Notes under the pieces: generated by a model
Told to the model about the DNA's origin: nothing
The model's input: the letters and a program-made list of their open reading frames with translations, nothing else
The model's database searches: none
NCBI GenBank assembly: GCA_964487665.1
Contig: CAZARR010000005.1
Location: 100 to 64,099, forward strand
Direction of reading: 5' to 3'
DNA: 64,000 nucleotides
DNA from: an uncultured Pseudomonadales bacterium
GTDB taxonomy: Bacteria; Patescibacteriota; Microgenomatia; UBA1400; MFAQ01
In this document: in pieces, positions 1,125-64,000 of the stretch
Layout: every line of letters starts with the position of its first letter
Numbering within the stretch: the first letter of the stretch is position 1
Program-made: the position numbers and the translations under genes

Positions 1125-1477
1125 TGATTCCTAGTTTTTATTACCAAGTCCGAAAGGAAAAGATGGGACGAGATGGAGACTTTTTTTATTTTCGATAGCA
1201 ATAAATGGTGTCGATGAGCCTTTCCGCTTAGCTCAGAATGGGTGATATCGAGAAAGTCCTTTGCGACGATCAGCTTGTCAGTAAAGAAATTAAAGGGGAA
1301 GCGCGAGCGAAAGGTGGCGCGTTTATGTTTTACTTGGCGTTTTTTGCTTGGGGAATACTTTACCTGCTGGCGGAGGCAACCAACAAACTGGTGAAAATTA
1401 TATTCACGGTTGATAAGTCTGTGCAAACAGCCACAACCTTGAGTTAGCACCTTACTTAAATATATTAACAGGTTTTG

Positions 1478-2140: not shown

Positions 2141-2189
2141 AAGTGTGATTGTACTAGTTTGGGTCAGTTCGGTGGGGTAGAATGTCGAT

Positions 2190-2684: not shown

Positions 2685-2827
2685 TGATGTCAGGGGAAGG
2701 GATTGTTTGGGACACTATAATATTACTCGCTTACCCTAGTGATTTGACCGGAGTTACCGCCTAGTATTTTTAATAATATTAATAGCTAAGATTATGGAAG
2801 AGAATATATGATGTTAATATTAGAACT

Positions 2828-3919: not shown

Positions 3920-3937
3920 TGCTTATTCGTGTAAAAT

Positions 3938-4228
3938 ATGGCAGCAATGAGTAAAAGTGCAGCCTACGAGTTGGTGGTGATGTTTGCCGCGGAAAAGAAC
4001 GATGTAATGGCGGAAAAGTCAGTCGCCGATAAATGTAAAAAGAATGATCTTAAGGTTCTTTCTGTCGACAAGTGGGGGGTGAAGACGCTCGCTTACCCGA
4101 TTAACAAACAAAACAAGGCTTTGTATTTGTTCTACAAACTAGAAGGTATGGGTAGTGGTGCCAAGGCATTAGCAGCCGAGTTGAAATCTGACGAGGATAT
4201 TATAAGGTATTTGTTAATTAAAAATTAA
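3938..4228 (+). CDS. rpsF: 30S ribosomal protein S6
   Basis: 96 aa, S6-like N-terminus (YELVVMF). Conserved rpsF-ssb-rpsR gene order. Confidence 0.85.
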   Translation: MAAMSKSAAYELVVMFAAEKNDVMAEKSVADKCKKNDLKVLSVDKWGVKTLAYPINKQNKALYLFYKLEGMGSGAKALAAELKSDEDIIRYLLIKN

Positions 4229-4239
4229 GGATAACAAAC

Positions 4240-4779
4240 ATGAGCGCCAGAAGTTTGAACAAAGTGATTTTGATAGGAAACTTAACTAAGGATCCTGAGC
4301 TTAGGTATACGCCTTCGGGGACAGCGGTTTGCTCTTTTAGTGTTGCCACCAATCGTGACTGGGTAGACCCGAATGGACAGAAACAGGAAGAGGTTGAGTT
4401 TACGAGAGTAGTTGCCTGGAGCAAACTGGCCGAAATTTGTTCTCAGCTATTGAATAAGGGTAGAAAGGTGTATGTTGAAGGACGTTTAAGGACAAGGGCT
4501 TGGAAGTCGCAAGATGGACAGGATAGACAAGTGACGGAGGTGGTGATAAGTGAGATGATTGCCTTAGGAGATCCAAAGGGTGGGGCTTCTTATCAGGGTG
4601 GTGAACCGACTGCTGCTTATGATGATAACGCTGTGGCAGCGGATCAGGCCACTAGCGCTGAGGCTGTTAACCCCGAAGAGGTATTTGTTCCTGATGAAGA
4701 GGTTGTCAAGGACGAAAAACCACCCAAAACCAAGAAAAAAAGTATGGCTGAAGAAGTGGCCGACGATATTCCGTTCTAA
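4240..4779 (+). CDS. ssb: single-stranded DNA-binding protein
   Basis: OB-fold N-terminus (VILIGNLTKDPELRYTPSG), acidic C-terminal tail ending DDIPF. Confidence 0.95.
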   Translation: MSARSLNKVILIGNLTKDPELRYTPSGTAVCSFSVATNRDWVDPNGQKQEEVEFTRVVAWSKLAEICSQLLNKGRKVYVEGRLRTRAWKSQDGQDRQVTEVVISEMIALGDPKGGASYQGGEPTAAYDDNAVAADQATSAEAVNPEEVFVPDEEVVKDEKPPKTKKKSMAEEVADDIPF

Positions 4780-4791
4780 TTTATAGATAAT

Positions 4792-5025
4792 ATGCAACCA
4801 ATAAAGAAAAAAATAAGAAGAAGTAACAAGCCGTGCTATTACTGCACTGCAAAGACAGAACCTGATTACAAAAATATTGAAAGTTTACAGGTGGCTCTGT
4901 CTAATAAACAGAGGATAGTATCAAGATTATTAACTGGCGTATGCCAAAAACACCAGAGGCGCGTGGCTCGGGAAATAAAGCGGTCGCGACATCTGGCTTT
5001 TCTTCCTTTTGTGGGTAGGCTTTAA
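4792..5025 (+). CDS. rpsR: 30S ribosomal protein S18
   Basis: CYYC ... PDYKN ... RIVSRLLTGVCQKHQRRVAREIKRSRHLAFLP matches the S18 consensus. Confidence 0.9.
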   Translation: MQPIKKKIRRSNKPCYYCTAKTEPDYKNIESLQVALSNKQRIVSRLLTGVCQKHQRRVAREIKRSRHLAFLPFVGRL

Positions 5026-6260
5026 TGAAGTTGTCCAAGATTAGATCTGCCCTAATAATCTTGATTTTGGTTTTGCTTTCTGGTGGAATAGGATTTTCTC
5101 AGGGCAAAAAAAGTGTTTTGGTAAGAATCTCGGATGGCAAGTCGTCCTCGTTGATTGAAGACAAAAGTGCTGCGGCTAATCTAGATTTGTTTTGGGAGGT
5201 TTGGCACAAACTAGAAAGAAGTTACTTGGAACCGTCGGCCATTGATACCAAAAAAATGGTTTACGGAGCTATCAAGGGGATGACTGCAGCTTTGGATGAT
5301 CCATACACATCCTTCTTGCCACCGACGGATAACAATAGAACCAAGGAGGATTTATCTGGTGAGTTTAATGGGATTGGAATCCAACTTGGTTTTATCGAAA
5401 AGACTTTGGCTGTAATGTCGCCGCTTCCTAACAATCCTGCGATTAAGGCAGGGATTAGATCACGTGACTTAATTCTAAAAATAAAAGATAGTGAAAAAAA
5501 CATCGATAAGGACACCCAAGGGATGAGCTTGTCCGAGGCAATGGAGTTAATCAGGGGTAAAAAGGGTACAAGCGTAACCTTAACGGTCCTGCACGAGGGG
5601 GATAAGGAAACGAAGGAAATAAGTGTGATACGAGACACGATTAATGTGGTCTCGGTTGAATTGGTGTGGAAAGAAAATAGTGTGGGTAAAAAAGTGGCGT
5701 GGTTAAAAGTGTTAAGGTTTGGTGAGAAGACGACTTCCGAGTGGGAGAAGGCGGTGGGCGAGGTTGCAATGAAACGAAAAAGCGATAGCAGGTTTGGTGG
5801 AGTTGTCTTGGACTTGAGAAACAATCCAGGAGGATTTTTAAAGGGTGCAGTTGATTTGGCCTCGGAGTTTGTCGCTGATGGGGTGATTGTTCAGCAACAG
5901 GGTAAGGATACTACGGAAAAGTTTGAAGTCGATAGACAGGGGAAATTAATTGGTGTACCACTTGTAATTTTAGTTAATCAGGGATCTGCAAGTGCGAGCG
6001 AGATATTGGCTGGAGCATTACGCGAGAGACTGGGTGTAAAAATTGTGGGCGAGAATACATTCGGAAAGGGCACGGTTCAAGAGGCTCAGGAACTTGCGGG
6101 TGGCGCCGGCCTTCATGTGACAGTAGCTCGATGGCTATTGCCATCTGGTAAAAATATTCACAAAGAAGGATTAAAGCCTGATATTGAAATAAAGTACCAA
6201 GCCAAAGAGGGAGATTCCGAGTATGATAATCAGATTGATCGAGCGGTTGAAATTTTGTAG
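5025..6260 (+). CDS. ctpA: carboxy-terminal processing peptidase (S41 family) with PDZ domain
   Basis: N-terminal signal/TM segment. GIGIQLGF PDZ region. LDLRNNPGGFL S41 active-site region. Confidence 0.85.
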   Translation: MKLSKIRSALIILILVLLSGGIGFSQGKKSVLVRISDGKSSSLIEDKSAAANLDLFWEVWHKLERSYLEPSAIDTKKMVYGAIKGMTAALDDPYTSFLPPTDNNRTKEDLSGEFNGIGIQLGFIEKTLAVMSPLPNNPAIKAGIRSRDLILKIKDSEKNIDKDTQGMSLSEAMELIRGKKGTSVTLTVLHEGDKETKEISVIRDTINVVSVELVWKENSVGKKVAWLKVLRFGEKTTSEWEKAVGEVAMKRKSDSRFGGVVLDLRNNPGGFLKGAVDLASEFVADGVIVQQQGKDTTEKFEVDRQGKLIGVPLVILVNQGSASASEILAGALRERLGVKIVGENTFGKGTVQEAQELAGGAGLHVTVARWLLPSGKNIHKEGLKPDIEIKYQAKEGDSEYDNQIDRAVEIL

Positions 6261-12886: not shown

Positions 12887-13546
12887 TTATTTGTCAAATT
12901 TGGCCTTGAGAAGGGTGTACTGCTTATTTTTGCTGTCGCTAGTTACGATGGCAGTAACTTTGCTAGAGGTCGTGGAACTATTGATTGTTGGAGTAAAGTT
13001 TCTAGGAAAGATAACTTTTATCTCTGTCTGGTCCGGGCGGAGTATAGAAAAAACGCGTGTCTTGGTATCGACTGTGGTTACAGTACCAAATACAGGCATG
13101 CGTGTGGCGATAGCAACCGAGGGTTGGCCAATGTTGATAATGCGACGAGCAATAACAATATCCGAACCCATCTGGCGTTCACCAATGATAATTATCTTCC
13201 CGTTTAGTGATAGGTCTTTGATAGTAATGTTTTTGTTATTATCGAGAATAGTTGTGGAGTTTTGAATAGCAATTTGTAGGTTTTCATTCTTCTTAGTTGT
13301 GACCAGCAAATTATTACTGTTGATTGAATCAACGGTAGTTACAACACCAATTAGGTTCTGGCTTATGGCCACAGCCGAAGATTGGGCGTTTTTGTCGATA
13401 GTGTCTTTAATTTTGTCGACAACTTCCTTGGTTATTTCTTGGCTACTTGTTGCCTCGGGAGTGGTGGCCGCAAATGTGATTATTTGATGACTGAGACATA
13501 GGAAAGAAAAAATAATAATGGTAGTAATGTTAGTCAGGTGTTTCAT
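12887..13546 (-). CDS. hypothetical secreted protein (N-terminal signal peptide)
   Basis: Hydrophobic N-terminus (IIIFSFLCLSHQIITFA). Thr/Ser/Asn-rich, low complexity. Confidence 0.45.
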   Translation of the reverse strand: MKHLTNITTIIIFSFLCLSHQIITFAATTPEATSSQEITKEVVDKIKDTIDKNAQSSAVAISQNLIGVVTTVDSINSNNLLVTTKKNENLQIAIQNSTTILDNNKNITIKDLSLNGKIIIIGERQMGSDIVIARRIINIGQPSVAIATRMPVFGTVTTVDTKTRVFSILRPDQTEIKVIFPRNFTPTINSSTTSSKVTAIVTSDSKNKQYTLLKAKFDK

Positions 13547-13992
13547 AAAGTTGAGGTGGTGTAAATAACCGTTACCGTTTGATCCTCTTGAGTGGAGCCA
13601 ATAATGGTCGTGACTCTAATTTCATTTTCTCCACCAACCAAGCTGATATTAGTTTCGTAGTTACCTTTGTTGTCCGAAGTTACGATTGTCTCCGAGCCCT
13701 CATATATAACTGTAAGATCGCTGTTCGCAGGCGCTTTTCCTCTGACAATGATATTTTTTTCAAACAAAACCGACTGATCTTGGGGGTAGGTAATGGTTAG
13801 TTTGGCCGTGGGTGGTGTGGGGGCGGCAGTAACTGTGGCCAGAGAGCTTGTTTGCTCCGTTGCCTTGGGAAGGTTAGTGGTAATTGCCTTTTGCGTTGCT
13901 TCCTTTGCAATCTTTAGACCGTAAAGTATTACAGTTCCAAGAATGGCGCCTATGACAATTGCGAAAACTATTTCTTTACGCATCAAGCGCAA
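13543..13992 (-). CDS. hypothetical membrane-anchored protein
   Basis: Single N-terminal TM (FAIVIGAILGTVILYGL) followed by a Thr-rich linker and a beta-rich domain. Stop/start coupled with the downstream secreted-protein gene. Confidence 0.45.
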   Translation of the reverse strand: MRLMRKEIVFAIVIGAILGTVILYGLKIAKEATQKAITTNLPKATEQTSSLATVTAAPTPPTAKLTITYPQDQSVLFEKNIIVRGKAPANSDLTVIYEGSETIVTSDNKGNYETNISLVGGENEIRVTTIIGSTQEDQTVTVIYTTSTL

Positions 13993-14045
13993 AGATAACA
14001 GTTTATGGGAGCGAATTCAACTGGGTGTATGCTAAGATAAGGGCA

Positions 14046-14714
14046 ATGGTCGAGATTGTTTATTTGGGTCATTCGTGTTTTAAGATAAAATCAGGCAAAT
14101 TACCAACGGTGTTAATTGATCCATTTGATCCCAAGGTGGTGGGATTGGGACTTCCCAAACAGGATGCCGATATTGTATGTATTTCTCATCAACATGAAGA
14201 TCACAATTGTAGTTTGGTAGTTTCTGGGGCAACAGGACGGGAAGCTCCATTTGTTATCGATAGGCCGGGCGAGTATGAAATCGGTGGGGTTGAGGTCAGG
14301 ATGGTCAACACATTTCATGATAATAAAGAAGGAGATGAGCGCGGAAAGAATTTAGTCTGTGTAGTGAGAATAGATGGAGTTTTTGTGGTACACCTGGGTG
14401 ACTTGGGACATTCTTTGTCAGACAAGAAAGTCGAAGAGATTGGTTATACGGACGTGTTGATGATTCCAGTGGGTGGTATATATACAATTCCAATTAAGGA
14501 GGCTGTGGGGGTGATTAACCAGCTGGATCCAGGAATAGTGGTACCAATGCATTACAAAGTCGAAGGTCTGGTTTTGCCACGCGCTTCTGAGATGAATACT
14601 GTTGACGAATTTTTGAAGATTTACGGTGTTCAAGACCCAGTTCGCGAGAAAAAACTAAAAGTAAGTGCGGACTCTTTACCCGAAAATACTATTGTTGAAG
14701 TGTTAGAAGTCTAA
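14046..14714 (+). CDS. metallo-beta-lactamase-fold metal-dependent hydrolase (UPF0173-like)
   Basis: VEIVYLGHSCFKI ... CISHQHEDH, the MBL fold HxHxDH motif. The track ORF begins at 13959; the homologous start is likely M at 14046. Confidence 0.7.
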   Translation: MVEIVYLGHSCFKIKSGKLPTVLIDPFDPKVVGLGLPKQDADIVCISHQHEDHNCSLVVSGATGREAPFVIDRPGEYEIGGVEVRMVNTFHDNKEGDERGKNLVCVVRIDGVFVVHLGDLGHSLSDKKVEEIGYTDVLMIPVGGIYTIPIKEAVGVINQLDPGIVVPMHYKVEGLVLPRASEMNTVDEFLKIYGVQDPVREKKLKVSADSLPENTIVEVLEV

Positions 14715-14722
14715 TATTTTGT

Positions 14723-16033
14723 ATGGCTATTAGGATTCCACCGCATTCGGACGAGGCGGAAAGGAGTGTGTTGGGAGCGCTTCTTATTGACCGAGACGCG
14801 GTGGTAGAGGTAATAGACAAGCTTTCGGCTGACATGTTTTATGATCAAGCTAGGGGCAAAATTTTTGGGGCTATCAAAGTACTTTATGAAAATCGTGACC
14901 CGATAGATGTGGTGACAGTGGGGGACAGATTAAAATCGGATAAAGTCTTAAAGGATGTTGGTGGTGTATCGATCTTGACGGAGTTAGCCGGTGGCGTGCC
15001 AACTACCGCGCACGTAGGCAAGTATGCCAAGATAGTTAAAGAAAACTATGTAAAACGCCAAATGGTTTCGTTGGCTGCCGATCTGACGGAGATGGTCCTC
15101 GACGAAGGGAGTGATCTTGATCAGGTATTGGATAGGGCAGAGCAGTCGGTGTTTTCAATCAGTCAAAAAAATGTCAACACGGGGTTTGTGGCGATAAAAG
15201 ATGCCTTGGCGGAAAGTTTTGATAGGCTTGATGAGCTGCATAAATCTGGTGGGGGGCTGCGGGGGATTCCCACGGGTTTTACCGACCTCGACGACGCTTT
15301 GGCGGGTATGCAAGAGAGTAACTTAATTATATTAGCTGCGCGACCTGGAGTGGGGAAAACAAGTCTGGCGCTAAACATTGCTCACTATGCTGCCGTAGAG
15401 AAAAAGATTCCAGTAGGCGTATTTTCACTAGAAATGAGTAATTTGGAATTGGTGGATCGCTTGTTGGTGGCCCAGGCGAATATTGACGCATGGAAGATGA
15501 AAACAGGTAATCTGAAAGATGACGACTGGTTGGCTATGTCCGAAGCGATGGGGGTACTGGCTGACTCGCCACTTTTTATAGATGATACGCCCGGGCAATC
15601 TATATTACAGATGAGGACAAAAGCAAGAAGGTTACAGTCTGATTCTGGGATAAAGTTATTGGTGGTTGATTATCTCCAATTAGCTGTTGGCGACGGAAAA
15701 TACGAAAGTAGAGTTCAAGAGGTGGGGGCGATATCACAGGGGCTGAAAAATTTGGCTCGTGAATTAAAAATTCCGGTTTTGGCATTGTCCCAGTTATCAC
15801 GAGCAGTAGAAAGTAGAGGAGAAAAAATTCCTCAGCTTTCTGATTTGCGAGAATCGGGCAGCATCGAACAGGACGCTGATGTGGTGATGTTTTTGTTTAA
15901 GCCAGACGAAGAAAATTTGGAGGATTACAAGCTGAACATTGCCAAGCACAGGAATGGTCCACTGAGAACTATTGAATTGCACTTCCGTGGAGACAGAATT
16001 AGGTTTTACGGTGCGGAGCGGGGTAGGAACTAG
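14723..16033 (+). CDS. dnaB: replicative DNA helicase DnaB
   Basis: IPPHSDEAERSVLGALLID N-terminus. Walker A ARPGVGKTSLAL. RecA-like C-terminal domain. No intein. Confidence 0.95.
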   Translation: MAIRIPPHSDEAERSVLGALLIDRDAVVEVIDKLSADMFYDQARGKIFGAIKVLYENRDPIDVVTVGDRLKSDKVLKDVGGVSILTELAGGVPTTAHVGKYAKIVKENYVKRQMVSLAADLTEMVLDEGSDLDQVLDRAEQSVFSISQKNVNTGFVAIKDALAESFDRLDELHKSGGGLRGIPTGFTDLDDALAGMQESNLIILAARPGVGKTSLALNIAHYAAVEKKIPVGVFSLEMSNLELVDRLLVAQANIDAWKMKTGNLKDDDWLAMSEAMGVLADSPLFIDDTPGQSILQMRTKARRLQSDSGIKLLVVDYLQLAVGDGKYESRVQEVGAISQGLKNLARELKIPVLALSQLSRAVESRGEKIPQLSDLRESGSIEQDADVVMFLFKPDEENLEDYKLNIAKHRNGPLRTIELHFRGDRIRFYGAERGRN

Positions 16034-54943: not shown

Positions 54944-56212
54944 TTAAAGTAACTTTTGATCAATTTCGATCTTGATTTTAGCAATAAAAGCTTGCAAAGT
55001 CATCTGTCCGAGGTCAGGTTGGTTCCGGGAACGTACAGAAACGATGTTTTGGGATTGTTCTTTTTCGCCTAAAATTAGCATATAAGGAATTTTTTGCGCT
55101 TGAGAGTTGTGGATTTTTTTGCCCAGAGTTTCTGCTGATTGGTCAAGCTCGGTGCGAATGTTTAGGGATTTTAAGCTCTCATCAACCTGTTTGGCATAAG
55201 GCAATATTTTGTCGGAAATGGGAAGCAAGGCAACCTGAACCGGAGAAAGCCAGGTTGGAAGTGAACCCGCAAAATGTTCCAATAAAAAGGCCGCGACTCT
55301 CTCGATAGCACCAATACTTGAACGGTGAATAACAATTGCCATTTGTTCGAGACCATCAGCACCAATAAATTTAAGATTAAACCTTTCAGGCATTACAAAA
55401 TCGTACTGGACGGTAAAGGCAGTTTCTTCGACTCCGGTTATCTTTTTCATTTGTATATCAATTTTTGGTCCATAAAAAGCAGCTTCGTCTGCTGCCTCGA
55501 AATAATCAGCGTTTCTTTCGACTAGAGAGTGGCGGAGTAGGTCTTCCGCGTCATCCCAGCCTTGTGGATCGTCAACGTATTTAGTTGTGTTTTTTCTGTC
55601 GCCAAGAGAGAGTCTATATCTGTAGTTACTACCAGGTTTCAGGCCAAATGTTTTTGCTACAAAATCAATTAAATTCAGGGCTCCTTTAATTTCCTCTTTA
55701 GCCTGTGCTTTGTTGGCGCAAATAATATGTGAATCGGCCAAACAAAAAGATCTGACTCGGGTGAGTCCAGATAATACCCCAGAAAGCTCGTACCGGTATA
55801 GCTTGGCGATCTCTGCAATCCGCATGGGTAATTCCTTGTAACTACGAGGCTGTGAGAGGAAGAGTTCAAAGTGGTGAGGGCAGGTCATAGGACGAAGCAT
55901 ATATTCTTCATCGTCAATTTTGATGGGGGCATACATTGTTTCTTTGTAGTAAGGGTAGTGGCCGGATTTTTTGTACAAATCAATTTTTCCGATATCTGGG
56001 GTGTAAACATGTTGGTAGCCCCATTTGAGTTCTGTATCCACCACAAAGTGTTCTAGTTCCCTTCTAAATGTGGCACCTTTTGCAGTCCACAAAGGCAATC
56101 CTTTGCCGACCACATCTGAGAATGTAAATAATCCTAATTCTCGACCCATTACTCGGTGATCACGGGGGTCAAGGGATTCGCTTTCTTGATGGTCTTGGTT
56201 TATTGTTTGCAT
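54944..56212 (-). CDS. thrS: threonine--tRNA ligase, minimal form (catalytic + anticodon-binding domains only)
   Basis: HRSSIGAIERVAAFLLEHFAGSLPTWLSPVQVALLPISDK parallels ThrRS motif 3 and the anticodon-binding domain. 422 aa versus ~640 in full-length enzymes (N1/N2 editing domains absent). Heads the thrS-infC-rpmI-rplT-pheST cluster. Confidence 0.88.
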   Translation of the reverse strand: MQTINQDHQESESLDPRDHRVMGRELGLFTFSDVVGKGLPLWTAKGATFRRELEHFVVDTELKWGYQHVYTPDIGKIDLYKKSGHYPYYKETMYAPIKIDDEEYMLRPMTCPHHFELFLSQPRSYKELPMRIAEIAKLYRYELSGVLSGLTRVRSFCLADSHIICANKAQAKEEIKGALNLIDFVAKTFGLKPGSNYRYRLSLGDRKNTTKYVDDPQGWDDAEDLLRHSLVERNADYFEAADEAAFYGPKIDIQMKKITGVEETAFTVQYDFVMPERFNLKFIGADGLEQMAIVIHRSSIGAIERVAAFLLEHFAGSLPTWLSPVQVALLPISDKILPYAKQVDESLKSLNIRTELDQSAETLGKKIHNSQAQKIPYMLILGEKEQSQNIVSVRSRNQPDLGQMTLQAFIAKIKIEIDQKLL

Positions 56213-56237
56213 TTGATTATATTTTTAATAAAAAACC

Positions 56238-56295
56238 ACCTTCGATTGCAGGATCCCGTAAGGGAGGTTCCATCCTGCTTACCAGTGGTGGTCTC
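56238..56295. promoter_or_regulatory. nested stem-loop (ACCACC ... GCAGGAT-CCC-GUAA-GGG-AGGUUCC-AUCCUGC ... GGUGGU) in the thrS 5' leader
   Basis: Perfect complementarity of outer (ACCACC/GGTGGT) and inner (GCAGGAT/ATCCTGC) stems. CCC/GGG closes a GTAA (GNRA) loop on the plus strand. Located 26-83 nt upstream of the thrS start. Confidence 0.3.
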
Positions 56296-56494
56296 TTGAT
56301 TGTCAGATTGGGGCTGACTCCCCTGCTTCTTTATGGTTGGTGTCCATATTCTAACGAAGCATTTCAGTTGTAATGGCAGTATAAGACTTGTTACGTTGTT
56401 ATTTCAAGTGGTGGTGTTATTCTAGCATTTGCTCGAACCCTTTTTGAACTGGCAAAACCGCTCCGCTTTCTTAATTCCGAACAAGTTTCGTTTG

Positions 56495-56601
56495 GTGGTC
56501 TTCTTTAGAGAAATTCTAACCTATTTCCGACAGAATTATTAACAGCGGAGCTCACCGCTCCGCGTGCGCGCCCCCACCCGCGCACGCCTCGCGGTTCGCA
56601 C
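56495..56601. repeat. IR-A (107 bp, GC-rich, contains two internal perfect hairpins)
   Basis: Reverse complement of 61036-61142 with a single mismatch. Internal palindromes CGGAGC-TCACC-GCTCCG and GCGTGCGCG-CCCCCACC-CGCGCACGC. Confidence 0.9.
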
Positions 56602-56969
56602 TATTTGTATTTTCGCTCGGTTTCCCTCGCTACGTGCTAACGCCCGCTTTGCACGCGATTTTTAAGAAAAGCGGTATCCCGTCCTCAAAGTCGAAGCTTC
56701 GCAACTCCATTTCGGTCGGGATATATTTGCCTTACGGCAAAGTGGCGATATTCATCACCACATTTATATGTTCGCCACAAGATCACATCTAGTGATTGTG
56801 GCGAAACTGTTCTCAAGATATGGCTCGCTCCACTCGCCATTAAATACCCACTGATTAGGAATCGATTTTATCAGTGGGTATTTATGCCTTGAGACAGTTT
56901 TTGTCTCTCAGTCGTGGGCCGATTTCCAGAGAGATGATACCTCTTACGTTTTTCCTCGAATGAAGTTGT

Positions 56970-57758
56970 TTATAAATTCTTAATCTGTAAAGAATCTGAG
57001 GATATAGCTTCATATATACACTTTATTTTTCTCATTTTAAGTTTATCTATAAAGATTTTTCTTTGTGCGCTCACTCGGACATAAGCATCAATTACAGCTT
57101 TTGTTGGAATAACTGGATTATTTTCATTCACCTCCCTATCTTTCAGCCGGGATAATGAAGCATCAAGGGAAGCCAAAATATCAACCACATAAATTATTTT
57201 GTATTCATTCTTAATTGCCATGTTGATTATCATTTCCAGATCTTCAACATATTCAAGTGTTCTTTCTGTGATGAAGCTTTTTCTTAATGAGAATATCTTC
57301 TCATACGTCCAAAGGGTCACAAAATACGCTTCAAGATCGTACTGATTATCTTTTGTTCCTGTTATGGCAAACTTTTTTAGTTTACTCCGTATGTTGTCTG
57401 GTCCAATTACTCCTGACTTTATTTTGAAAACATTTTTAATAAAAGTTGATTTCCCCGCTCCGGGCTGGCCTCTCACTATTATTACGGATGGTGATAATTT
57501 ATGACCCAACTTTTTTTGTATAATGGTTTCAATTTTTTTCAAGTTATTATTATTCTCCTGAATTAACTCATAGGTGATTTTTTTATGAAATATTTGTCTT
57601 AGAGGAACCCAGTTGCTATGGAGCTTTAAAGTTTCATAAGTTTCGTCCCAGTCATTCTTTTGCCAGTCTTTTTTAAGATTCGAAAAAAGTTTAAATGTTT
57701 CTAGGTTGGGAAACAACCATAATTTGACGTTATTAAGAAAATATAAAAAAGCTTCCAT
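56970..57758 (-). CDS. P-loop NTPase/kinase-like protein (zeta-toxin/AAA_33-like Walker A)
   Basis: Walker A IVRGQPGAGKSTFIKN roughly 105 aa from the N-terminus. Walker B-like IIYVVDI. 262 aa. Confidence 0.5.
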   Translation of the reverse strand: MEAFLYFLNNVKLWLFPNLETFKLFSNLKKDWQKNDWDETYETLKLHSNWVPLRQIFHKKITYELIQENNNNLKKIETIIQKKLGHKLSPSVIIVRGQPGAGKSTFIKNVFKIKSGVIGPDNIRSKLKKFAITGTKDNQYDLEAYFVTLWTYEKIFSLRKSFITERTLEYVEDLEMIINMAIKNEYKIIYVVDILASLDASLSRLKDREVNENNPVIPTKAVIDAYVRVSAQRKIFIDKLKMRKIKCIYEAISSDSLQIKNL

Positions 57759-58508
57759 CTATTTCACAGCAGTAATTAAAAAAGGATCCGATATTACAGA
57801 TATTTCTCCGTTGACAAATAACTCATCAATTCTGCTCATGTCTTTCTCAGGATCAAAGTCTCTTATTATTGGTGCCATTGTGAAGATCGTGATAATGTCT
57901 TCCCGTGTGTAGCTTTTATTAAAGCTGAATTGAGAGTATGAAAATGTTTGCGGTTTCTCTTTTCTTAATTTTTCAATGTATATCAGAGGATCAGTCAGCT
58001 TCATTCTTTTTGTAAATAGTTCGGTAATTCCACCGAATCCCTTAAGTAATCCATATTCTTTAAAAATAAACAGACCTCCTGGTTTTAATACCCGAAACAC
58101 CTCAGAAAAAGAAAAATTAGTAGCTAATTTATTAGTTATCACATCAAAATAATTATCCTCAAAAGGTAAAGAAAAGTTATCTCCGTAAACTATTTTTATT
58201 TGAGGAAAATCTTTGCATTTTGCGGATGCCTCTGTGACCATTTTTTCTGATAAATCTATACCATATAAACTTTTCCCCTTAATATTTTGTAGATTCTTAA
58301 TTATTTCGGTAAGTACATAGCCATTGCCTGTGCCGATATCTAACAACTTTCCTAAGTCAAATTCGTTCAGATGATTGGCCGCCAACTTAATTAAAGAGCT
58401 TGTTGTATCATCTGTGGCTTGATGTGAACCATAAAATGATTCTCTCGTCTTGACTACCTTATTGGTGTAAAAAGACGCACTGGAATTATTGTCTTGCGAT
58501 CGGTTCAT
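57759..58508 (-). CDS. class I SAM-dependent methyltransferase
   Basis: Motif I LLDIGTGNGYVLTEI. Acidic motif II YGIDLSE. Motif post-II VLKPGGLFIF. The track ORF extends to 58610; start likely M at 58508. Confidence 0.7.
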   Translation of the reverse strand: MNRSQDNNSSASFYTNKVVKTRESFYGSHQATDDTTSSLIKLAANHLNEFDLGKLLDIGTGNGYVLTEIIKNLQNIKGKSLYGIDLSEKMVTEASAKCKDFPQIKIVYGDNFSLPFEDNYFDVITNKLATNFSFSEVFRVLKPGGLFIFKEYGLLKGFGGITELFTKRMKLTDPLIYIEKLRKEKPQTFSYSQFSFNKSYTREDIITIFTMAPIIRDFDPEKDMSRIDELFVNGEISVISDPFLITAVK

Positions 58509-59310
58509 ACTTTGTGGCCTTAACAATAATTGTCCCAGGAATTCTCCGCAGATGCTCATAACTGAAAGGATTGGCTTTTGGGTTACCAACGTACCTCGAT
58601 CTGGTGGCAAAATTATTTGACCTTTCCTCTAAAATTGGCTCAGGTTCTAATAAATTATTGATTACGAATCCAGCTTTGATGACAGACATGACATAATCAG
58701 AAACAGTTTTAAATGATCCGGTCATTGTGGCAGAAATGTTGTCTTCCGGAAACTCGTATTGCCAAGTCTTCATTTCACGATCAAAATAATTATTAAGGAT
58801 AAAGTTATCTTCACTATTCCAATAACCGTGATCTCTAACCGGATGGTCGGCGCTAAAAACTAAAGATCCATTCGGTTTTAATAATCTAAACATTTGTCTC
58901 ATCACACTTTCAAGTGAATCCACGGTCATGCAATATTGAAGAGCAAATGCAGAAACCACCAAATCAAAGGATTCAGGACCAAAATGCTTTTCTACTTCTT
59001 CAAAGTTGCCTTGAACAAATTCAACTATGGCTTTTTCAGATATGGCAAGTTCTTTTCCGTGTTTTAACTGCTCTTCGGATATGTCAAATGCGGTGACTTC
59101 TGCTCCGCGTTTCGATAGAAAAATAGAATTTTGGGCAGATCCAGAACCTAACTCTAAGACTTTCTTGCCCTTAACAGTGCCAAGCAACGTATCTAAATCA
59201 CTCGAATCGCAAAGCGGACCCCAGTAGTATTTATTAGTCTTAATATCGTATCTTTTTTGATAGCTTTTGGATATCTGTTCCCAACCTTCTTTGTTATCAA
59301 GCCTTTTCAT
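58486..59310 (-). CDS. class I SAM-dependent methyltransferase (Methyltransf_11/25-like)
   Basis: Motif I VLELGSGSAQNSIFLSKRGAEVTAFDISEEQL. LLKPNGSLVFS. 274 aa. Confidence 0.75.
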   Translation of the reverse strand: MKRLDNKEGWEQISKSYQKRYDIKTNKYYWGPLCDSSDLDTLLGTVKGKKVLELGSGSAQNSIFLSKRGAEVTAFDISEEQLKHGKELAISEKAIVEFVQGNFEEVEKHFGPESFDLVVSAFALQYCMTVDSLESVMRQMFRLLKPNGSLVFSADHPVRDHGYWNSEDNFILNNYFDREMKTWQYEFPEDNISATMTGSFKTVSDYVMSVIKAGFVINNLLEPEPILEERSNNFATRSRYVGNPKANPFSYEHLRRIPGTIIVKATKYEPIARQ

Positions 59311-60418
59311 TGTTCAATATCATCTGGTAATAATGCTTAATTTTTGAATAAGCATCATTTAGTGTGTTTCCAATTCCAAGTTCTCCATGAAACCTAAGTA
59401 TCATAAATCCATTGTTCTTTTGCAGATGAGGAACAGTTGGAATAATTGCATCAAAACTCCCATATCGGACATACTCAGGTGTTTTATATTCTTCAAGTGC
59501 GTCGGAATAAGTCATGGGACCGCAATGTGAATGGGCTATGGCATTTGTTCCAGTAGTTTGATAATAGACAATGTGCATTGGCGTATCACATGAAGGCATT
59601 TTTTCACCACACCAAGCGACTTTATCTTTAGTTTTTAGATTGATAAGAGTTAAATCTTGAAGAGCAAGGTTTCCCAATCTGCTTCCTGTGCTCGTGATTA
59701 GAGCCCAGTTATCGTCTACTCTAATACTGTAATTGCCATTGGTCGAAAAATTGGTTCTATCTTTTTCTTGTGTTTCTCCTAGTGTTCTAAAAACTTCATA
59801 ATATTTCTTCCTGGAATTATTTAAGAGTTCAAGTGTTTGTGGGTCTGACATCTGTTCCGAATCAAAAATGATTTTTGACTCTTCTATATAAAGTCTATCC
59901 AGAGCCCTCCTGTAATCCATCATGGAAACTTTTTCTTTGGTTATATTGGGCCAAATAATGATCACGCCCCAACTTTCTAATTTCTTAAGTGACTCCATAG
60001 TTTGAGGATGATTCCACATATCTTTGTTAAATGCTGGTATAACCAAGACTCTTTTTTTCTTGCCGATAGCGGTTGCTACTAAAGTGGTTGGATAGTTATC
60101 TGCAATACCAAGAGCGATTTTGTTAAACGTGTTAAACGTGCACGGAGCAACAATTACGATATCTTCTTCGGGAATGGACCTTCTTGGACCATGCCAATTA
60201 AAATCCTCATGGATATTATCCGAGAATTTTTTAAGCGGTTCGATAATATTTAAGGCTTTCTCGGTTGGGAATAGGTGGACGTTGCATCCCTGGCCAATCA
60301 GTTCATCCGCCATTTCTGCAATTTTTTCTATCTTTCCGGCAGCTGTGACAACCAAATATACAGTCTTCCCGGAGATTGTTTGTCTTGGAATTTTTATCAG
60401 ATGCTCATTCATTTCCAA
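59297..60418 (-). CDS. fusion protein: N-terminal HFCD-type flavoprotein (EpiD/CoaC-like) + C-terminal class II aldolase/adducin-like domain
   Basis: N-terminal GKTVYLVVTAAGKIEK ... IVIVAPCTFNTFNKIALGIADNYPTTLV ... VLVIPAFNKDMW matches the Flavoprotein (PF02441) consensus. C-terminal IAHSHCGPMTY resembles the class II aldolase HxH metal-binding region. Confidence 0.6.
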   Translation of the reverse strand: MEMNEHLIKIPRQTISGKTVYLVVTAAGKIEKIAEMADELIGQGCNVHLFPTEKALNIIEPLKKFSDNIHEDFNWHGPRRSIPEEDIVIVAPCTFNTFNKIALGIADNYPTTLVATAIGKKKRVLVIPAFNKDMWNHPQTMESLKKLESWGVIIIWPNITKEKVSMMDYRRALDRLYIEESKIIFDSEQMSDPQTLELLNNSRKKYYEVFRTLGETQEKDRTNFSTNGNYSIRVDDNWALITSTGSRLGNLALQDLTLINLKTKDKVAWCGEKMPSCDTPMHIVYYQTTGTNAIAHSHCGPMTYSDALEEYKTPEYVRYGSFDAIIPTVPHLQKNNGFMILRFHGELGIGNTLNDAYSKIKHYYQMILNNEKA

Positions 60419-60951
60419 AGTTTTCTGGCTTTTAATATTTCGTATGACAAAATTGGAATAACTGTTGGTGTCGTCATAAAAGGTAAAGCACAGGGAATGG
60501 TGATTTTTTCATCCATCAGTGCCAGCTGATCTTTGGAGAGGCCATTGGCTCCGCCGATCATAATTACATCATTGTCCAGCCATTCAAAATCTAAAGCATT
60601 ATCTCCTCCATTGGGGACTGTGGCTACAAGACGGAACCCCTGTCTTTTTAATTCTTCAAGTGAATTCTCTCGCCTCGGAATGGCATCTACATCATTTTTA
60701 GTTAAGTTCCAGGATTCCACCTTGGAAGCTACTTTAGGGTGAGAAAAGTCAAGAGTTACCCCAATCATTTCAAAACCAACGTGCGGCACACCAACTTTTG
60801 TTGCCAAAGAAACTTGAGCCGCCTGAGCAATATCAAAAGGTTTATCTAGGTTCACCAGGGCAAACCGGACTGGCGGAACGACACATCGTTTCTCCCACTC
60901 ACTCCAGGAGCTTAGAGAATTTTCTAAGCCGTATTCTTGGTTTATTTCCAT
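60409..60951 (-). CDS. SPOUT-class (SpoU/TrmH/TrmL-like) RNA 2'-O-methyltransferase
   Basis: IMIGGANGLSKDQLALMDEKITIP (motif 2-like) and TTPTVIPILSYEIL (motif 3-like). 180 aa minimal SPOUT. Confidence 0.55.
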   Translation of the reverse strand: MEINQEYGLENSLSSWSEWEKRCVVPPVRFALVNLDKPFDIAQAAQVSLATKVGVPHVGFEMIGVTLDFSHPKVASKVESWNLTKNDVDAIPRRENSLEELKRQGFRLVATVPNGGDNALDFEWLDNDVIMIGGANGLSKDQLALMDEKITIPCALPFMTTPTVIPILSYEILKARKLWK

Positions 60952-61035
60952 GTTGTTAATTTTAGCACAGATTTGATAGATATTCAGCTTATAGGCTGTT
61001 AATTTTTGCGTTTTCTGGTCGAGCCAACTCTTTGA

Positions 61036-61142
61036 GTGCGAACCGCGAGGCGTGCGCGAGTGGGGGCGCGCACGCGGAGCGGTGAGCTCCGCTGTTAATA
61101 ATTCTGTCGGAAATAGGTTAGAATTTCTCTAAAGAAGACCAC
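61036..61142. repeat. IR-A' (107 bp), inverted copy of IR-A
   Basis: Reverse complement of 56495-56601 (106/107). Shares its last 4 bp (CCAC) with the start of IR-B. Confidence 0.9.
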
Positions 61143-61227
61143 AATAATAGAGGTTCGCCCTGCTGGGGCGGCAGTCGCCCGCGCGAGAGCGGCCGCGCGG
61201 AGCGATACAAACGGCTTTTTGTATTCG
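61139..61227. repeat. IR-B (89 bp, GC-rich, several internal palindromes)
   Basis: Identical to the reverse complement of 63873-63961. Internal palindromes GGGCG-GCAGT-CGCCC, CGCGCG ... CGCGCG and ATACAAA ... TTTGTAT. Confidence 0.9.
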
Positions 61228-61309
61228 GGTCTAAAAAGATAGACAGAAAACGCAAAAATATAAATAGGTAAAACCTGTTTCTCTTCAGTTTCGGGAAATA
61301 TATGGTTAA

Positions 61310-62341
61310 ATGGTAATTAAGGTGAAATATATTGCCTACTGCCGGAAGAGTACTGATGAGAAAGACAAACAGGTTTTGAGTATTGAGTCGCAGATCGCGG
61401 AGTTAGAGGAGTTTGCCGGAAAGGAGAAACTGGAAGTTGTTTCCTGGATTGTAGAGAGCAAGACGGCCAGGGTTCCGGGGAGACCCAAGTTTGAGGAAGC
61501 TTTGAGATTGGTTGAATCCGGGAAAGCCGATGGACTTTTCGCCTGGCATCCAGACCGTCTTGCCAGAAATTCGGTAGATGGCGGTAGAATCATTTACTTA
61601 CTGGATACCGGCAAACTCCTTAATCTTAAATTCCCGACGTTCTGGTTTGAGAACACGCCCCAAGGCAAGTTTATGCTGAATATTGCCTTCGGCCAATCTA
61701 AGTATTACGTAGATAACCTAAGTGAGAATGTCAGCCGTGGATTAAGACAGAAGATTAGAAATGGAATCTGGCCAAGCAAAGCCCCTCACGGCTACTTTAA
61801 CTGTCCTCAAACCAGGACGATCAAGGTGGACAAGAAAAAATCAATAGTGGTCAAACAAGCTTTTGAATTGTTCGCGACAGGGAAATACAGTTACCACGAA
61901 ATTGGTAAGTTTCTCGCCTCTCACGGAATTCACGGCAGATCTCGGGAAGTATTACATCAGTCTGTGGTTAAAACCATGCTCACCAATCCCTTTTACATCG
62001 GTATCCTCGTCTATTCTGGCGAGAAATACAAAGGCAGTCACCAACAATTCATTGGGAGAGACTTGTTTGACCAAGTTCAAGAGCAGGTCAAGTATAAAAG
62101 TAAACCCCGGAAACATGGTCACAACTTTGCCTTTACTGGTTTAATTAAATGCCGTGAATGCGGAGGGGCAATTACGGCCGAGGAACACATCAAGCACTAT
62201 CCTACGACCCGTGGTGAGGTCAGATATGTTTACTACCGCTGTTCCAAGAAAATGGGTGTGAGATGTTCTCAGCCATATCTTGCCGAAGATAAATTGGTAA
62301 AGCAAATCTGGCTTAATTTAAGTTATGTGTTGGTAATTTAG
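61310..62341 (+). pseudogene. large serine recombinase, N-terminal fragment (resolvase catalytic domain + recombinase domain + zinc ribbon), interrupted by IS insertion
   Basis: YIAYCRKSTDEKDKQVLSIESQ (catalytic Ser region). LFAWHPDRLARN. Recombinase domain. Zinc ribbon CRECGG ... YYRCSKK ... C. The frame diverges after LVKQI exactly at the IS left end. Confidence 0.8.
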
Positions 62342-63440
62342 CCGTTTGGCGGGTAAAAACGAGTTAAGTACAGGTACCAGGAAATAAGATTCTCTTTGCT
62401 TGTTTGGGTCATGCCACGGTGGATCAATATTTTGTTGTCAAGCTGGGAGTAGGAGCCTTCGGAGCTGTTGTTGTCTTTGGGGAGATTGGGGTAGCGAAAG
62501 TAGGTAAACATGTGAGGGAGCGCTTGATAGAGATGCTGGTAGCTTTGACGCAAGTACGGGTGGGTGTACCACCACTTAGGAGTCTTTCGCTCAGGATCGT
62601 CATTGAACGTTTTTGTTGTAAAGAATTGGTAATGCCGTTTGTAGAGACGGATAAACCAGCGGATGAAGATTTTGGCTTCGTAAGTGGTAGTGATTTTGTT
62701 GATATGGGAGGCAAGGAGTAGTAGGTCTTTTCCCGCCTCTGTTTGGGGGTGTTGGGTTAAGAGAGTTTGGATTCTGGTTTGGATATGGACGAGACAACGC
62801 TGCACGGGGACAGATAAGCTGCTGCAGGCAGAAAACATGGCTTTCTTGCCGTCAAAGATGGCTACCTTGAGTGGGTATCCTGCCTCAACCAAATACTCAA
62901 TATCAGCCTTAATCACGGCGAGGTATTCCCCACCCGCTAGAGACCAATAAATGAGCCCTAACTTGGTATCGCGATAGGTAATGAGACAGCGGTCACCAAA
63001 CCAGTCAGCATCGATTAAAAGGTAACCAGTACAATCGCTCCAACTGGCAGTAGTTTTGAGCTTAACAAAGTAGGTTTGAGAGGTGGGAGGTGAAGCCAAA
63101 TATTGCTGGAATCTAATACTTAACGAGGGGACTGATAGGCCAGAGAGCTCACTTAAGTAGGCTAGGGTTGACGTATGTCGCACCCACTGGCAAAATAAAC
63201 GGAATAGCTTGCGACTGGAGACTCTTTCTTTATTGCCCAAACTGAAACAGGAGTGGCAATTAGAGCAATAAAATCGACACTTCCCCTTACTAGTTTTTCC
63301 CCACTTTATAGCTGGGTTTTGACACTGTGGGCAGTGGTGAAAACGCTTGTTTTTTTCATGGGTAGATATTTTAGACGCATATTAGTGCGATAACAAGGAA
63401 AAAACAACCATTTTCACCAACACTTAAGTTAAATTAAACC
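62310..63440. mobile_element. insertion sequence (1131 bp) with ~27-bp imperfect terminal inverted repeats and 8-bp target-site duplication GCAAATCT
   Basis: TSD copies at 62302-62309 and 63441-63448. Left end GGCTTAATTTAAGTTATGTGTTGGTAA. Right end (reverse complement) GGTTTAATTTAACTTAAGTGTTGGTGAA (23/27). Encodes one transposase ORF. Inserted within the serine recombinase gene. Confidence 0.75.
62338..63240 (-). CDS. IS transposase (DDE-type candidate; QRCLVH motif reminiscent of IS256/Mutator-family, family uncertain)
   Basis: 300-aa ORF filling the IS. Candidate acidic residues in LLIDADWFGD and VAIFDGKKA. VQRCLVHIQTR motif. Confidence 0.55.
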   Translation of the reverse strand: MGNKERVSSRKLFRLFCQWVRHTSTLAYLSELSGLSVPSLSIRFQQYLASPPTSQTYFVKLKTTASWSDCTGYLLIDADWFGDRCLITYRDTKLGLIYWSLAGGEYLAVIKADIEYLVEAGYPLKVAIFDGKKAMFSACSSLSVPVQRCLVHIQTRIQTLLTQHPQTEAGKDLLLLASHINKITTTYEAKIFIRWFIRLYKRHYQFFTTKTFNDDPERKTPKWWYTHPYLRQSYQHLYQALPHMFTYFRYPNLPKDNNSSEGSYSQLDNKILIHRGMTQTSKENLISWYLYLTRFYPPNG

Positions 63441-63872
63441 GCAAATCTCCGCTTGTATATCAGATATTGCCCTTCCGCACTCCTGGGCGAAGAGATGGTT
63501 TACCTGGGCTGAAGAAGAGGTAGAAAAAGACCGGCAAAGTTGTGACAAGATAACAATTCAGGTCAGGGGTGAATTAAAACAGATCGAGGAGAAAACCGAC
63601 AGACTGCTTGACCTGTATCTTGAACAGAATTTAGCTGAAGAAATCTACAAGAAGAAGCAAAACCAACTATTTGAGGAGAAGACAAAACTCATGGCTCAAA
63701 TTGAAAAGAGTAAAGGAGGAGGTTCGATCTGGCTCGAACCAATGAAAGAATTTATAGATTGCGCCCTGCAGGCGCAAAAAATCGCGCGCAAAGAATATAC
63801 AAATGGCAAAATCTGCGATTTTGCCAAAAGAGTTGGCTCGACCTATCTTTTAGACAGGGGAAAAATTAGAGT

Positions 63873-63961
63873 CGAATACAAAAAGCCGTTTGTATCGCTC
63901 CGCGCGGCCGCTCTCGCGCGGGCGACTGCCGCCCCAGCAGGGCGAACCTCTATTATTGTGG
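63873..63961. repeat. IR-B' (89 bp), inverted copy of IR-B, abutting tRNA-Val 3' end
   Basis: Perfect reverse complement of 61139-61227. Its terminal GTGG overlaps the last 3 nt of the tRNA. Confidence 0.9.
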
Positions 63962-64000
63962 ACGATGCTGGAGTCGAACCAGCGACCTCTGCAATGTCAA
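63959..64000 (-). tRNA. tRNA-Val(GAC), 3' portion (truncated by window end)
   Basis: Minus strand reads ...UUGACAU-UGCAG-AGGUC-GCUGG-UUCGACU-CCAGC-AUCGUCC-A. T-arm GCUGG/CCAGC with loop UUCGACU. Anticodon loop UUGACAU gives GAC. Discriminator A. The 5' half lies beyond 64000. Confidence 0.6.

Follow-up and report, generated by a model that had tools for sequence, protein, structure and literature searches.

Large serine integrases, among them those of phiC31, Bxb1 and A118/LI and the SPbeta integrase SprA, are built of a Resolvase domain, a Recombinase domain, a zinc ribbon and a coiled coil. Their sites have a short crossover core, their attP and attB half-sites share a distal motif that is about 5 bp nearer to the centre in attB (PMC3783163), and attL and attR are the products of integration. 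A recombinase of the same architecture, hereafter LSR (large serine recombinase), is encoded between positions 56495 and 63961 of a 64,000-nucleotide stretch of contig CAZARR010000005.1 (assembly GCA_964487665.1), the whole of which is called the window below. Comparison of the region 56495-63961 with its relatives indicates that it is most probably one copy of a family of small integrative elements, found mainly in Patescibacteria, in which the LSR drives insertion just after the 3' ends of tRNA genes. The enzyme belongs to the known large serine recombinase family, and what would be new concerns its sites and their arrangement. First, the target is the general T-arm DNA of tRNA 3' ends, with no recognizable second half-site. 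Second, the arms of the element sites are 60-160 nt long and carry conserved hairpins and extra T-arm-like boxes, as against 40-50 bp for canonical sites. Third, what reads as a complete inverted attP is kept inside the integrated element, and the open reading frame (ORF) of the recombinase crosses attP. Finally, unlike large serine integrases, the family has no conserved directionality-factor gene and is almost absent from viral contigs.

Other described systems share single traits with the family. As in its members, the recombinase gene of Hin, Gin, Cin and Pin lies inside a segment bounded by inverted sites, and both orientations occur in nature; those enzymes are small serine invertases of ~190 aa with a C-terminal helix-turn-helix, 26-bp sites and a Fis-bound enhancer, not mobile as such, whereas the family has an LSR of ~520 aa, att-type sites with arms of 60-160 nt, insertion at tRNA genes and one strongly predominant orientation. 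In the small transposons Tn4451/Tn4453 (TnpX) and Tn5397 (TndX), one LSR is sufficient for movement via a circular intermediate, with no directionality factor besides it, and this is the type of mobility that the present family would need; they are not known to have long inverted repeats, an internal attP or tRNA specificity, and their end dinucleotides differ from those of the present family. In the yeast 2-micron plasmid, the inverted repeats with the FRT sites of Flp separate two unique regions, the recombinase gene lying in one of them, and inversion isomers are formed. The likeness lies in the two inverted, target-bearing repeats and the recombinase gene in one segment; the plasmid encodes a tyrosine recombinase, replicates, does not integrate, and has isomers of equal frequency. 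IS607-family elements encode a small serine recombinase with an N-terminal MerR-like helix-turn-helix, usually together with tnpB; here the enzyme has the LSR architecture, and a tnpB-like gene is absent from the element.

Integrase genes that span attP have a precedent in Mx8 (IntP; PMC4383910) and in the SSV-type 'suicidal' integrases (PMC7253208), where, as here, the site lies within the recombinase ORF, integration changes or splits the gene, and the targets are tRNA genes. Those enzymes are tyrosine recombinases, whereas the present one is an LSR, only a short C-terminal tail would be exchanged, and an inverted spare copy of the missing part appears to be kept; no description of such an inverted spare copy of an integrase end was found in the open-access literature and preprints. 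Islander-type tRNA islands likewise carry variable cargo and occupy the 3' part of tRNA genes (PMC4383910), but they use tyrosine integrases and duplicate a part of the tRNA as a direct repeat. In the present family, crossover takes place within the final 2-9 nt of the tRNA, nothing but the core is directly repeated, and the arms form inverted repeats. No published description of the layout reported below was found in open-access papers and preprints.

The element in the window is 7.5 kb long, or 6.3 kb without an insertion sequence (IS) that it has acquired, and is located between thrS on one side and tRNA-Val(GAC) on the other, in the orientation usual for the family. It is divided by long inverted repeats (IR). 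IR-A (56495-56602) is the reverse complement of 61035-61142 (IR-A') over 108 nt with a single mismatch at 56578, and IR-B (61139-61234) pairs with IR-B' (63866-63961) over 96 nt, the 89 nt nearest to the core being exact. Both pairs had been noticed in a preliminary description of this DNA, made from the letters alone, and are real, with the extents now given; the tetranucleotide that it considered a shared recombination core is indeed present at all four repeat ends, as CCAC (61139-61142) in the overlap of the central arms IR-A' and IR-B and as GTGG at the outer ends (56496-56499 and 63958-63961), and is read here as the crossover core. The four arms are the sole repeats of at least 35 nt anywhere in the window, and arm pieces of 31-32 nt have no copy in it beyond these places (shuffles expect 0). 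A GC content of 65-70% had been attributed to the repeats; GC-richness holds for the hairpin halves (0.76 in IR-A and 0.81 in the central part of IR-B, at 0.42 for the window), but not for the whole arms (0.57 in IR-A and 0.62 in IR-B), the core-proximal half of IR-A having a value of 0.33.

The right end abuts a tRNA gene, as proposed earlier. The final 42 nt of the window (63959-64000, minus strand) correspond to the 3' part of a tRNA that is cut by the window end (partial Rfam match, E=0.24), and the complete tRNA-Val(GAC) was found at the same junction in relatives that share the arms, L001, L002 and L101-L103 (L numbers designate genome loci).

To define the anatomy of the junctions, the three junctions of 24 elements were aligned on their identity boundaries. 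The left junction (J1) consists of A', core and X, X being the far-side host sequence; the central one (J2) consists of A', core and B, and the right one (J3) of tRNA, core and B. The core shared by all three is 2-9 nt long, most commonly 4, and represents the very end of the tRNA (CCAC in the window). A TTCGA-like motif was found 21-22 nt from the core in 20 of the 24 A' arms, and 20 of 23 tRNA arms have the T-loop sequence TTC[GA]A at a distance of 17 nt; wherever both could be scored, they are offset by +4 or +5. A weaker motif, GGA[AGT], was seen in 14 of 24 B arms at 5-9 nt from the core, and no positional motif was found in the host X arm of the 24 elements. In serine integrases (PMC3783163), the motif for the zinc-ribbon domain sits 5 bp nearer to the centre in attB than in attP. 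The offset of 4-5 nt between A' and tRNA matches this rule, and therefore J3 is read as attL and J1 as attR, while J2 would be a complete inverted attP between cargo and recombinase. Together with the identification of the element itself, we consider these assignments well supported by the comparison, including the notion that the LSR of the family reads the DNA of the tRNA T-arm and that an arm of attP mimics it.

These assignments account for the repeats: two long inverted-repeat pairs are present because two of the three sites have the P arm (J1 and J2) and two have the P' arm (J2 and J3). The earlier remark that known serine-recombinase elements lack terminal inverted repeats (TIRs) of ~100 bp stands, but the termini are not transposon-like, and an internal inverted attP would explain them. 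In the window, IR-A would be the P arm at the left end (attR, J1), with the core at 56496-56499, a half-site mimicking the T-loop at 56499-56521 and a GC hairpin at 56562-56587. IR-A' is the candidate P arm of the internal attP (J2), with its half-site at 61116-61138 and a hairpin with a G-rich loop at 61050-61075; IR-B would be the P' arm of the same site, with the core at 61139-61142 and a GC hairpin at 61178-61200, and IR-B' the P' arm at the right end (attL, J3), with the core at 63958-63961. The tRNA part would provide the B-type half-site of the target (T-loop DNA at 63970-63980), and the host sequence left of the element in the thrS upstream region (56213-56494, minus strand), which lacks a recombinase motif, would be the X half of the original target. 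Two independent TIR elements, each with a palindromic attP, were also considered and rejected, as the cores of a pair are inverted and contain no palindromic dinucleotide, and the P/B-type offset fits the three-site model. With such cores, a serine recombinase could therefore invert the modules but not excise them.

The layout is widespread. Among 8000 candidates scored, 7697 proteins were related to the LSR at E<=1e-20, and LSR loci in species-representative genomes (one genome per species) numbered at least 593, of which 80 were fetched for layout analysis. The full order of IR-A, cargo, IR-A', IR-B, LSR, IR-B' and tRNA was found in 26 of the 80, most of the others being cut by contig ends, often within an arm; more complete elements were found in L088-L104, in metagenomes as well as in L101 and L104. 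In total, more than 30 independent loci have the layout beside a tRNA 3' end, and most of them belong to metagenome-assembled genomes (MAGs) of Patescibacteria. The record labels include a few other groups, among them a 1.8-Mb contig labelled Ignavibacteriota, and chromosome-scale contigs of 0.9-1.8 Mb carry the layout in L009, L025 and L060. In the three closest LSR relatives fetched (72-83% identical), the LSR gene is surrounded by an inverted repeat of 76-89 nt with 99-100% identity, the right arm abuts a tRNA 3' end (Val-GAC in two, Ile-GAT in one), and an A'-like sequence precedes the left arm. The neighbouring tRNAs belong to at least 13 types (Val, Tyr, Lys, Arg, Gln, Trp, Pro, Leu, Ser, Gly, Glu, Ala, and Ile), and several copies may be present in one genome or contig (L006/L051, L033, L104). 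The arms are specific to each element and occur at its three junctions only: they are 96-100% identical within an element, and their variable parts strongly differ between elements whose LSRs are 72-83% identical. The arms of an element evolve in concert. Only four weak or partial relatives were found in IMG/VR, and this near-absence rules out a phage family.

Many MAG contigs begin or stop inside B arms (L013, L028, L031, L051, L057, L070, L076, L078), L057 being precisely one recombinase module bounded by its repeats. The elements probably fragment Patescibacteria assemblies beside tRNA genes.

Several loci show that the complete double-repeat unit is what inserts. First, in L053 a complete unit (877-4565) is nested in another LSR gene of the same family (508-5595), the outer ORF continuing across the insertion (residues 5-127 to its left, 123-468 to its right). 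The insertion lies in the DNA coding for the conserved AFGQSKYY motif. The antisense strand of this DNA resembles a T-loop and has TTCGA at 18 nt from the junction, so that the family carries a pseudo-target in its own LSR gene. Second, tRNA-Val(TAC) and tRNA-Phe are neighbours in L033 and have an element between them in L016, and, conversely, tRNA-Leu(GAG) and tRNA-Val(TAC) are neighbours in L016 and are separated by an element in L033. Presence/absence polymorphism was thus observed for the family. Third, a single tRNA-Lys in L104 (6467-11600) is followed by B2, LSR2, B2', then A, cargo, A', then B1, LSR1, B1', and a further A-type arm. In our reading, a second element has inserted between the tRNA and an older one. 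A site already occupied would thus stay available, in keeping with the absence of a specific second half-site. The tRNA-targeting integrative element that the preliminary description listed first among its hypotheses is the one that the data favour, the repeats being interpreted as arms of att sites that recur at at least 13 tRNA types.

The LSR gene of the window is interrupted. Its 5' part (61310-62309, plus strand) encodes codons 1-333, and the 3' part (63449-64000, plus strand) runs through IR-B' and the core into the antisense strand of the tRNA, with no stop codon before the window end. The run-through into IR-B' had been recognized before, but the split of the gene by an IS had been missed. 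This IS (62310-63440, minus strand; 1131 bp) has 25-nt TIRs (62310-62334 and 63416-63440) and an 8-bp target duplication, GCAAATCT, at 62302-62309 and 63441-63448; its transposase ORF (62338-63240, minus strand, 300 aa) gave NCBIfam matches to IS1249 / IS256 Zn-variant models below the cut-off, and the IS is present in a single copy within the window. Its deletion restores a single LSR frame of 504 aa that aligns end to end with members of the family. Profile searches with the 343-aa LSR part matched all three expected Pfam domains, Resolvase (PF00239, 1.9e-22), Recombinase (PF07508, 8.3e-14) and Zn_ribbon_recom (PF13408, 2.6e-10), and homologues of the enzyme lie in contexts with similar repeats. 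In the family alignment, the columns of R12, K13 and S14 and of the zinc-ribbon cysteines C281, C284, C311 and C319 are invariant; an N-terminal resolvase catalytic domain, a Recombinase domain after it and a zinc beta-ribbon that is interrupted by a coiled coil identify the protein as a large serine recombinase. Because the IS splits its recombinase gene, the copy in the window is unable to move by itself and is probably immobile unless served in trans; its arms are nearly intact despite the split.

The 3' end of the LSR gene has a peculiar relation to the sites. In the usual arrangement, the LSR ORF passes through B' and the core into the tRNA antisense strand, and the resulting tails are arbitrary sequences of 2-73 aa in two frames. 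With the A arm placed after B' instead, reading goes on in a single frame in 27 of 27 elements and ends in a tail of the form x[FY]x[KQE][IV]RT[YHQ]F[KR].. followed by a stop codon, the T-loop mimic being read as I/V-R-T. This tail is mostly 11-17 aa long, the native last ~14 codons and the stop lying in the A arm; in the window it would be VFFREILTYFRQNY. Ordinary integration would therefore replace the final ~14 native LSR codons by tRNA-antisense sequence. The translation-based spacing from the conserved GSN codons is 40, 44, 47, 48, 54 or 55 codons, so that length changes after the last conserved protein motif are multiples of three. This suggests that the A-arm tail is coding. Proteins ending in the native A-arm tail are on record in L097, in L104 (P0041, LSR1) and in L105 (P0020).

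The LSR 3' end faces the tRNA in about 72 of 74 testable modules, and the tRNA is on the LSR 5' side in 3 of 69 modules. Several loci depart from the usual arrangement. In L097, the LSR 3' end is followed by B' (the reverse complement of B), core and A and then by two boxes (m and C, described below) that normally adjoin the internal site, and the ORF ends in the native tail; judging from this order, the recombinase module is flipped in place. In L091, L063 and L073, tRNA and B precede the LSR 5' side. The LSR 3' end of L105 and L089 leads into A and from there into the cargo backbone of the left end, a junction expected of an excised circle or of integration via the internal attP. Finally, in L035 (9796-11582) the recombinase module is found alone between two convergent tRNA-Glu genes, with tRNA, core and B on both sides and without the A' arm, the product that a crossover between the internal attP and a second tRNA gene would be expected to give. 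No flipped cargo module was found (0/27 judged by the m box and 0/10 by a structured RNA motif), and the XRE gene was in the usual orientation in 8 of 8 cases. A rule that only P x B pairing occurs, so that only the recombinase module flips, was considered and dropped as statistically unsupported (0/27 vs about 5/75).

The following scheme could unite these data. In the free form, the two ends would join into attP and thereby complete the recombinase gene. Integration at a tRNA would split off the native tail and lead to the usual, stable state, in which the internal inverted attP retains a spare P arm with the native LSR 3' end. Inversion of the recombinase module between the B arms would rejoin the LSR to the native tail and place the gene downstream of the tRNA, and could act as a switch between resting and active recombinase that makes a separate directionality factor unnecessary. 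The spare copy would have to be inverted, because any other arrangement would delete the recombinase gene. We put forward the role of the internal attP as a spare 3' end rebuilt by inversion as a tentative proposal, the foremost of those considered here and still rather doubtful. Equally tentative is the broader suggestion that the element controls its own directionality by DNA inversion and recognizes its targets generically, tRNA T-arm DNA and a few matching core bases being sufficient for recognition, so that any tRNA gene or T-loop-like sequence could serve as a landing site.

A number of points weigh against this scheme. Excision, integration and inversion are all read from the comparison of sequences, and the resting state of an LSR with a tRNA-antisense tail is an assumption. 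The A-arm tail coincides with the P half-site and would be constrained at the DNA level anyway, the case for coding consisting of the frame and of indels in multiples of three, which may represent few independent events. Canonical serine integrases do not recombine attP with attL (PMC3783163); therefore, inversion would need atypical behaviour of the enzyme or RecA. Only about 8 of ~100 recombinase modules are flipped, a rate so low that the lack of flipped cargo (0/27) does not differ from it statistically, and the upkeep of arm identity is not accounted for. In addition, the empty tRNA-Val/thrS site of the window's copy, which would contain GCATCGTCCACCAAACGAAACTTG and had been proposed as a check, gave 0 matches in metagenome contigs when the tRNA-Val 3' half was used as the query.

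Alternatives to the spare 3' end are best weighed together with the boxes that flank the internal attP. On the cargo side, a C box (61001-61017, AATTTTTGCGTTTTCTG) is followed by the m box (61017-61032, GGTCGAGCCAACTCTT), which resembles a T-arm. On the other side lies the C' box (61244-61259, plus strand, CAGAAAACGCAAAAAT), a promoter- or operator-like sequence upstream of the LSR of which C is an inverted copy; in relatives, C' is located 20-60 nt before the LSR start codon. The internal attP is thus bracketed by the C/C' inverted repeat, and this relation is kept even though the sequence differs between subfamilies. By consensus matches, C and C' look like a pair of divergent promoter or operator boxes. 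Such a T-arm-like m box, GTTCGAGCCGA, adjoins A' at J2, outside the arm, in 20 of 27 elements, and it was never found at J1. A further promoter-like sequence, TTAATA-18-TAGAAT, lies within the A' arm (61095-61124, plus strand) and reads toward the core; it is a consensus-level match, and its counterpart at the left end (56542-56513, minus strand) would point into the thrS leader.

The internal attP might instead be the second attP of a free circle that has two inverted copies, in the manner of the 2-micron plasmid, so that the reconstitution of the tail would be incidental; integration could then proceed through either copy, and the two together could serve to exchange a cassette between convergent tRNA genes. 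End-to-end excision would by construction yield such a circle, the end-to-end junction is seen in L105 and L089, and the L035 module between convergent tRNA-Glu genes fits either a double crossover or a reaction between the internal attP and another tRNA gene. However, equivalent copies would make both orientations common, in conflict with the strong bias of the LSR 3' end toward the tRNA. Moreover, the flanking boxes of the two copies differ, the m box adjoining P in the internal copy and P' in the end-joined one, and a circular contig was not found, the IMG/VR search having given the four weak matches only. We regard this explanation as unlikely.

Equally unlikely in our view is that the internal attP is a cis-regulatory or decoy site, at which bound LSR would repress the flanking divergent promoter-like boxes or be diverted from excision into harmless inversion, either of which would stabilize integration. 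The position of the site between the inverted C and C' boxes across subfamilies, the closeness of C' to the LSR start and the additional T-arm-like m box alongside would all suit such a role. Neither an operator nor a decoy, however, needs arms of 60-160 nt that match the element ends at 96-100% identity; nor would such a role explain why the frame leading into the A arm is conserved, and the promoter assignments are consensus matches only.

The identity of the arms and the fixed orientation would be explained if the layout were the footprint of a folded single-stranded circle, in which two inverted attP strands pair, one is cut and inserted and replication completes the product, the uncut strand becoming the internal attP. 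A cut at the core and insertion into the top strand of the target would give the observed arm order, the arm hairpins have compensating stems, and a good fold was obtained for J2 as single-stranded DNA (z = -5.1). Against this, serine recombinases cut both strands of a duplex, and after a double-strand exchange with a dumbbell the chromosome ends would be capped by hairpins; rolling-circle or relaxase functions are not encoded in the elements, and the flipped isomers are not predicted by the model. Sites folded from a single strand, such as integron attC and CTX phage attP, on which a tyrosine recombinase acts, resemble the present case in the arm order of the product only, the enzyme here being a serine recombinase. 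This possibility is very improbable.

Slightly less probable still is a domesticated DNA-inversion switch, a non-mobile pair of invertible segments controlling the cargo operon, which had been the second hypothesis of the preliminary description. Its expectation of inversion is borne out for the recombinase module, which contains the recombinase gene inside an IR-bounded segment like hin and is flipped in a few relatives; flipped cargo, on the other hand, was never seen, and nothing suggests a switched external promoter. The insertion polymorphism in conserved tRNA arrays, the nested insertion in L053, the tRNA targets of at least 13 types, the unrelated cargo and the presence of several copies per genome or contig speak against it. 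Generic repetitive extragenic palindrome (REP)-like or miniature inverted-repeat transposable element (MITE)-like repeats, the third earlier hypothesis, or an assembly artefact can practically be dismissed: the arms are GC-rich and hairpin-forming and many MAG contigs break within them, but the window contains four arms in 64 kb and no extra copies, each element has arms of its own that are always at the same three junctions, and the layout recurs in dozens of independent assemblies, including the 0.9-1.8 Mb contigs.

Apart from the half-sites, the elements contain other conserved DNA features. The box found beside A' recurs twice in the 3' coding region of the LSR gene (67 loci), as boxes of the GGCTCGAAC type that are T-arm-like on the antisense strand and ~104 nt apart. 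Their codons are GGC in 64 of 67 cases (35% in the background), TCG in 67 of 67 (14%) and CTC in 53 of 57 (17%), and the adjoining proline codon varies freely. These codons are almost fixed and otherwise uncommon, which suggests a constraint on the boxes at the DNA level, and they may be accessory binding sites. In the window, the corresponding DNA-constrained boxes in the LSR 3' part are TGGCTCGAACC (63730-63740) and AAGAGTTGGCTCGACC (63828-63843), the latter being the window variant of the GGCTCGAAC box; with the m box at 61017-61032 they form the set of GTTCGAGCC-type boxes of the window. Hairpins with a G-rich loop were found in 17 of 39 A' arms, with at least six different compensating stems, and are not universal. 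In the B arm, a covariation test showed that the GC hairpin is invariant in the subfamily of the window and that the variable part is unalignable. Just inside IR-A lies a conserved backbone (56603-56662) that is ~85-92% identical to that of L101 despite unrelated cargo. It begins with an n-like box (56603-56620; CGAGCGAAAATACAAAT on the minus strand), which resembles CGCAAAAAT-type promoter-like boxes and recurs at the same place in relatives.

The backbone also contains a structured RNA-like motif (56690-56935, minus strand) of several hairpins with GNRA loops, one loop being AAAAUUUUCUCCUAA in relatives and AAAAUCGAUUCCUAA in the window. The ~240-nt motif was found in the window and 13 other loci (L004, L009, L011, L012, L088-L090, L093, L095, L096, L099, L101, L105), always at the cargo end beside IR-A and pointing outward, with a CUCCU-containing loop. 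Alignment and RNAalifold gave 60 pairs, 20 of them with compensatory changes, and the covariance model matched 56800-56899 with 98 bits. Of 29 pairs tested, 13 had changed on both sides, and 95.9% of cells were paired as compared to 24-48% when the structure was slid, counts made on a model-fitted alignment that favours the structure. An informal look at the alignments showed no apparent match of a motif loop to element-specific cores of the kind that RNA-guided targeting would call for. The gathering-threshold Rfam scan of the window yielded a tRNA-Leu only, and the scan of 56000-64000 at E<=5 yielded the cut tRNA and a chance miRNA match; in these scans, neither the arms, for which an Rfam search had been proposed earlier, nor the structured motif matched a family. 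Decayed copies in L090 (1836-2110) and L099 (611-885) retain tRNA-Val(GAC), the B arm and the final ~44 recombinase codons only, with the structured RNA motif ~1 kb further on.

The cargo of the window's copy consists of five co-directional ORFs between IR-A and IR-A' (56970-60951, minus strand), as described before. They encode a Zeta-toxin/AAA_33-like kinase (56970-57758), two S-adenosylmethionine-dependent (SAM) methyltransferases (57759-58610 and 58486-59310), a flavoprotein fused to a class II aldolase (59297-60418), and a weakly matching SpoU-like protein (60409-60951). Across elements the cargo ranges from 0.56 to 8 kb and includes no universal gene; a small XRE-type regulator and restriction-modification-like genes are recurrent, and no conserved small gene or directionality-factor gene accompanies the LSR among the cargo compared. 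Defence-like cargo was observed in close relatives, namely type I/IIG restriction-modification genes in L101 (620-8176) and L104 (12520-20593). In L001, genes for CD-NTase and Cap15-like proteins (13244-14760) are located ~8 kb beyond the tRNA side, outside the element. The host flank of the window's copy comprises thrS (54944-56212, minus strand), whose identification is confirmed by NCBIfam TIGR00418 (472 bits at a cut-off of 384) and the Pfam domains tRNA-synt_2b and HGTP_anticodon, with infC (IF3) and rplT (L20) downstream.

If the interpretation of these elements is true, they form a very abundant class of mobile elements in Patescibacteria, a group whose mobile elements are poorly known, with variable cargo that includes restriction-modification genes and XRE-type regulators and with arms that appear to break MAG assemblies beside tRNA genes. 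A serine integrase family recognizing the universal T-arm DNA would bear on the question of how integrases choose their targets and on their engineering for chosen sites. The internal inverted attP and the ORF crossing attP would offer a testable answer, free of a protein factor, to the problem of directionality control in simple serine-recombinase elements, and the family, if so, may represent the serine counterpart of the 'suicidal integrase' paradox, with a built-in remedy.

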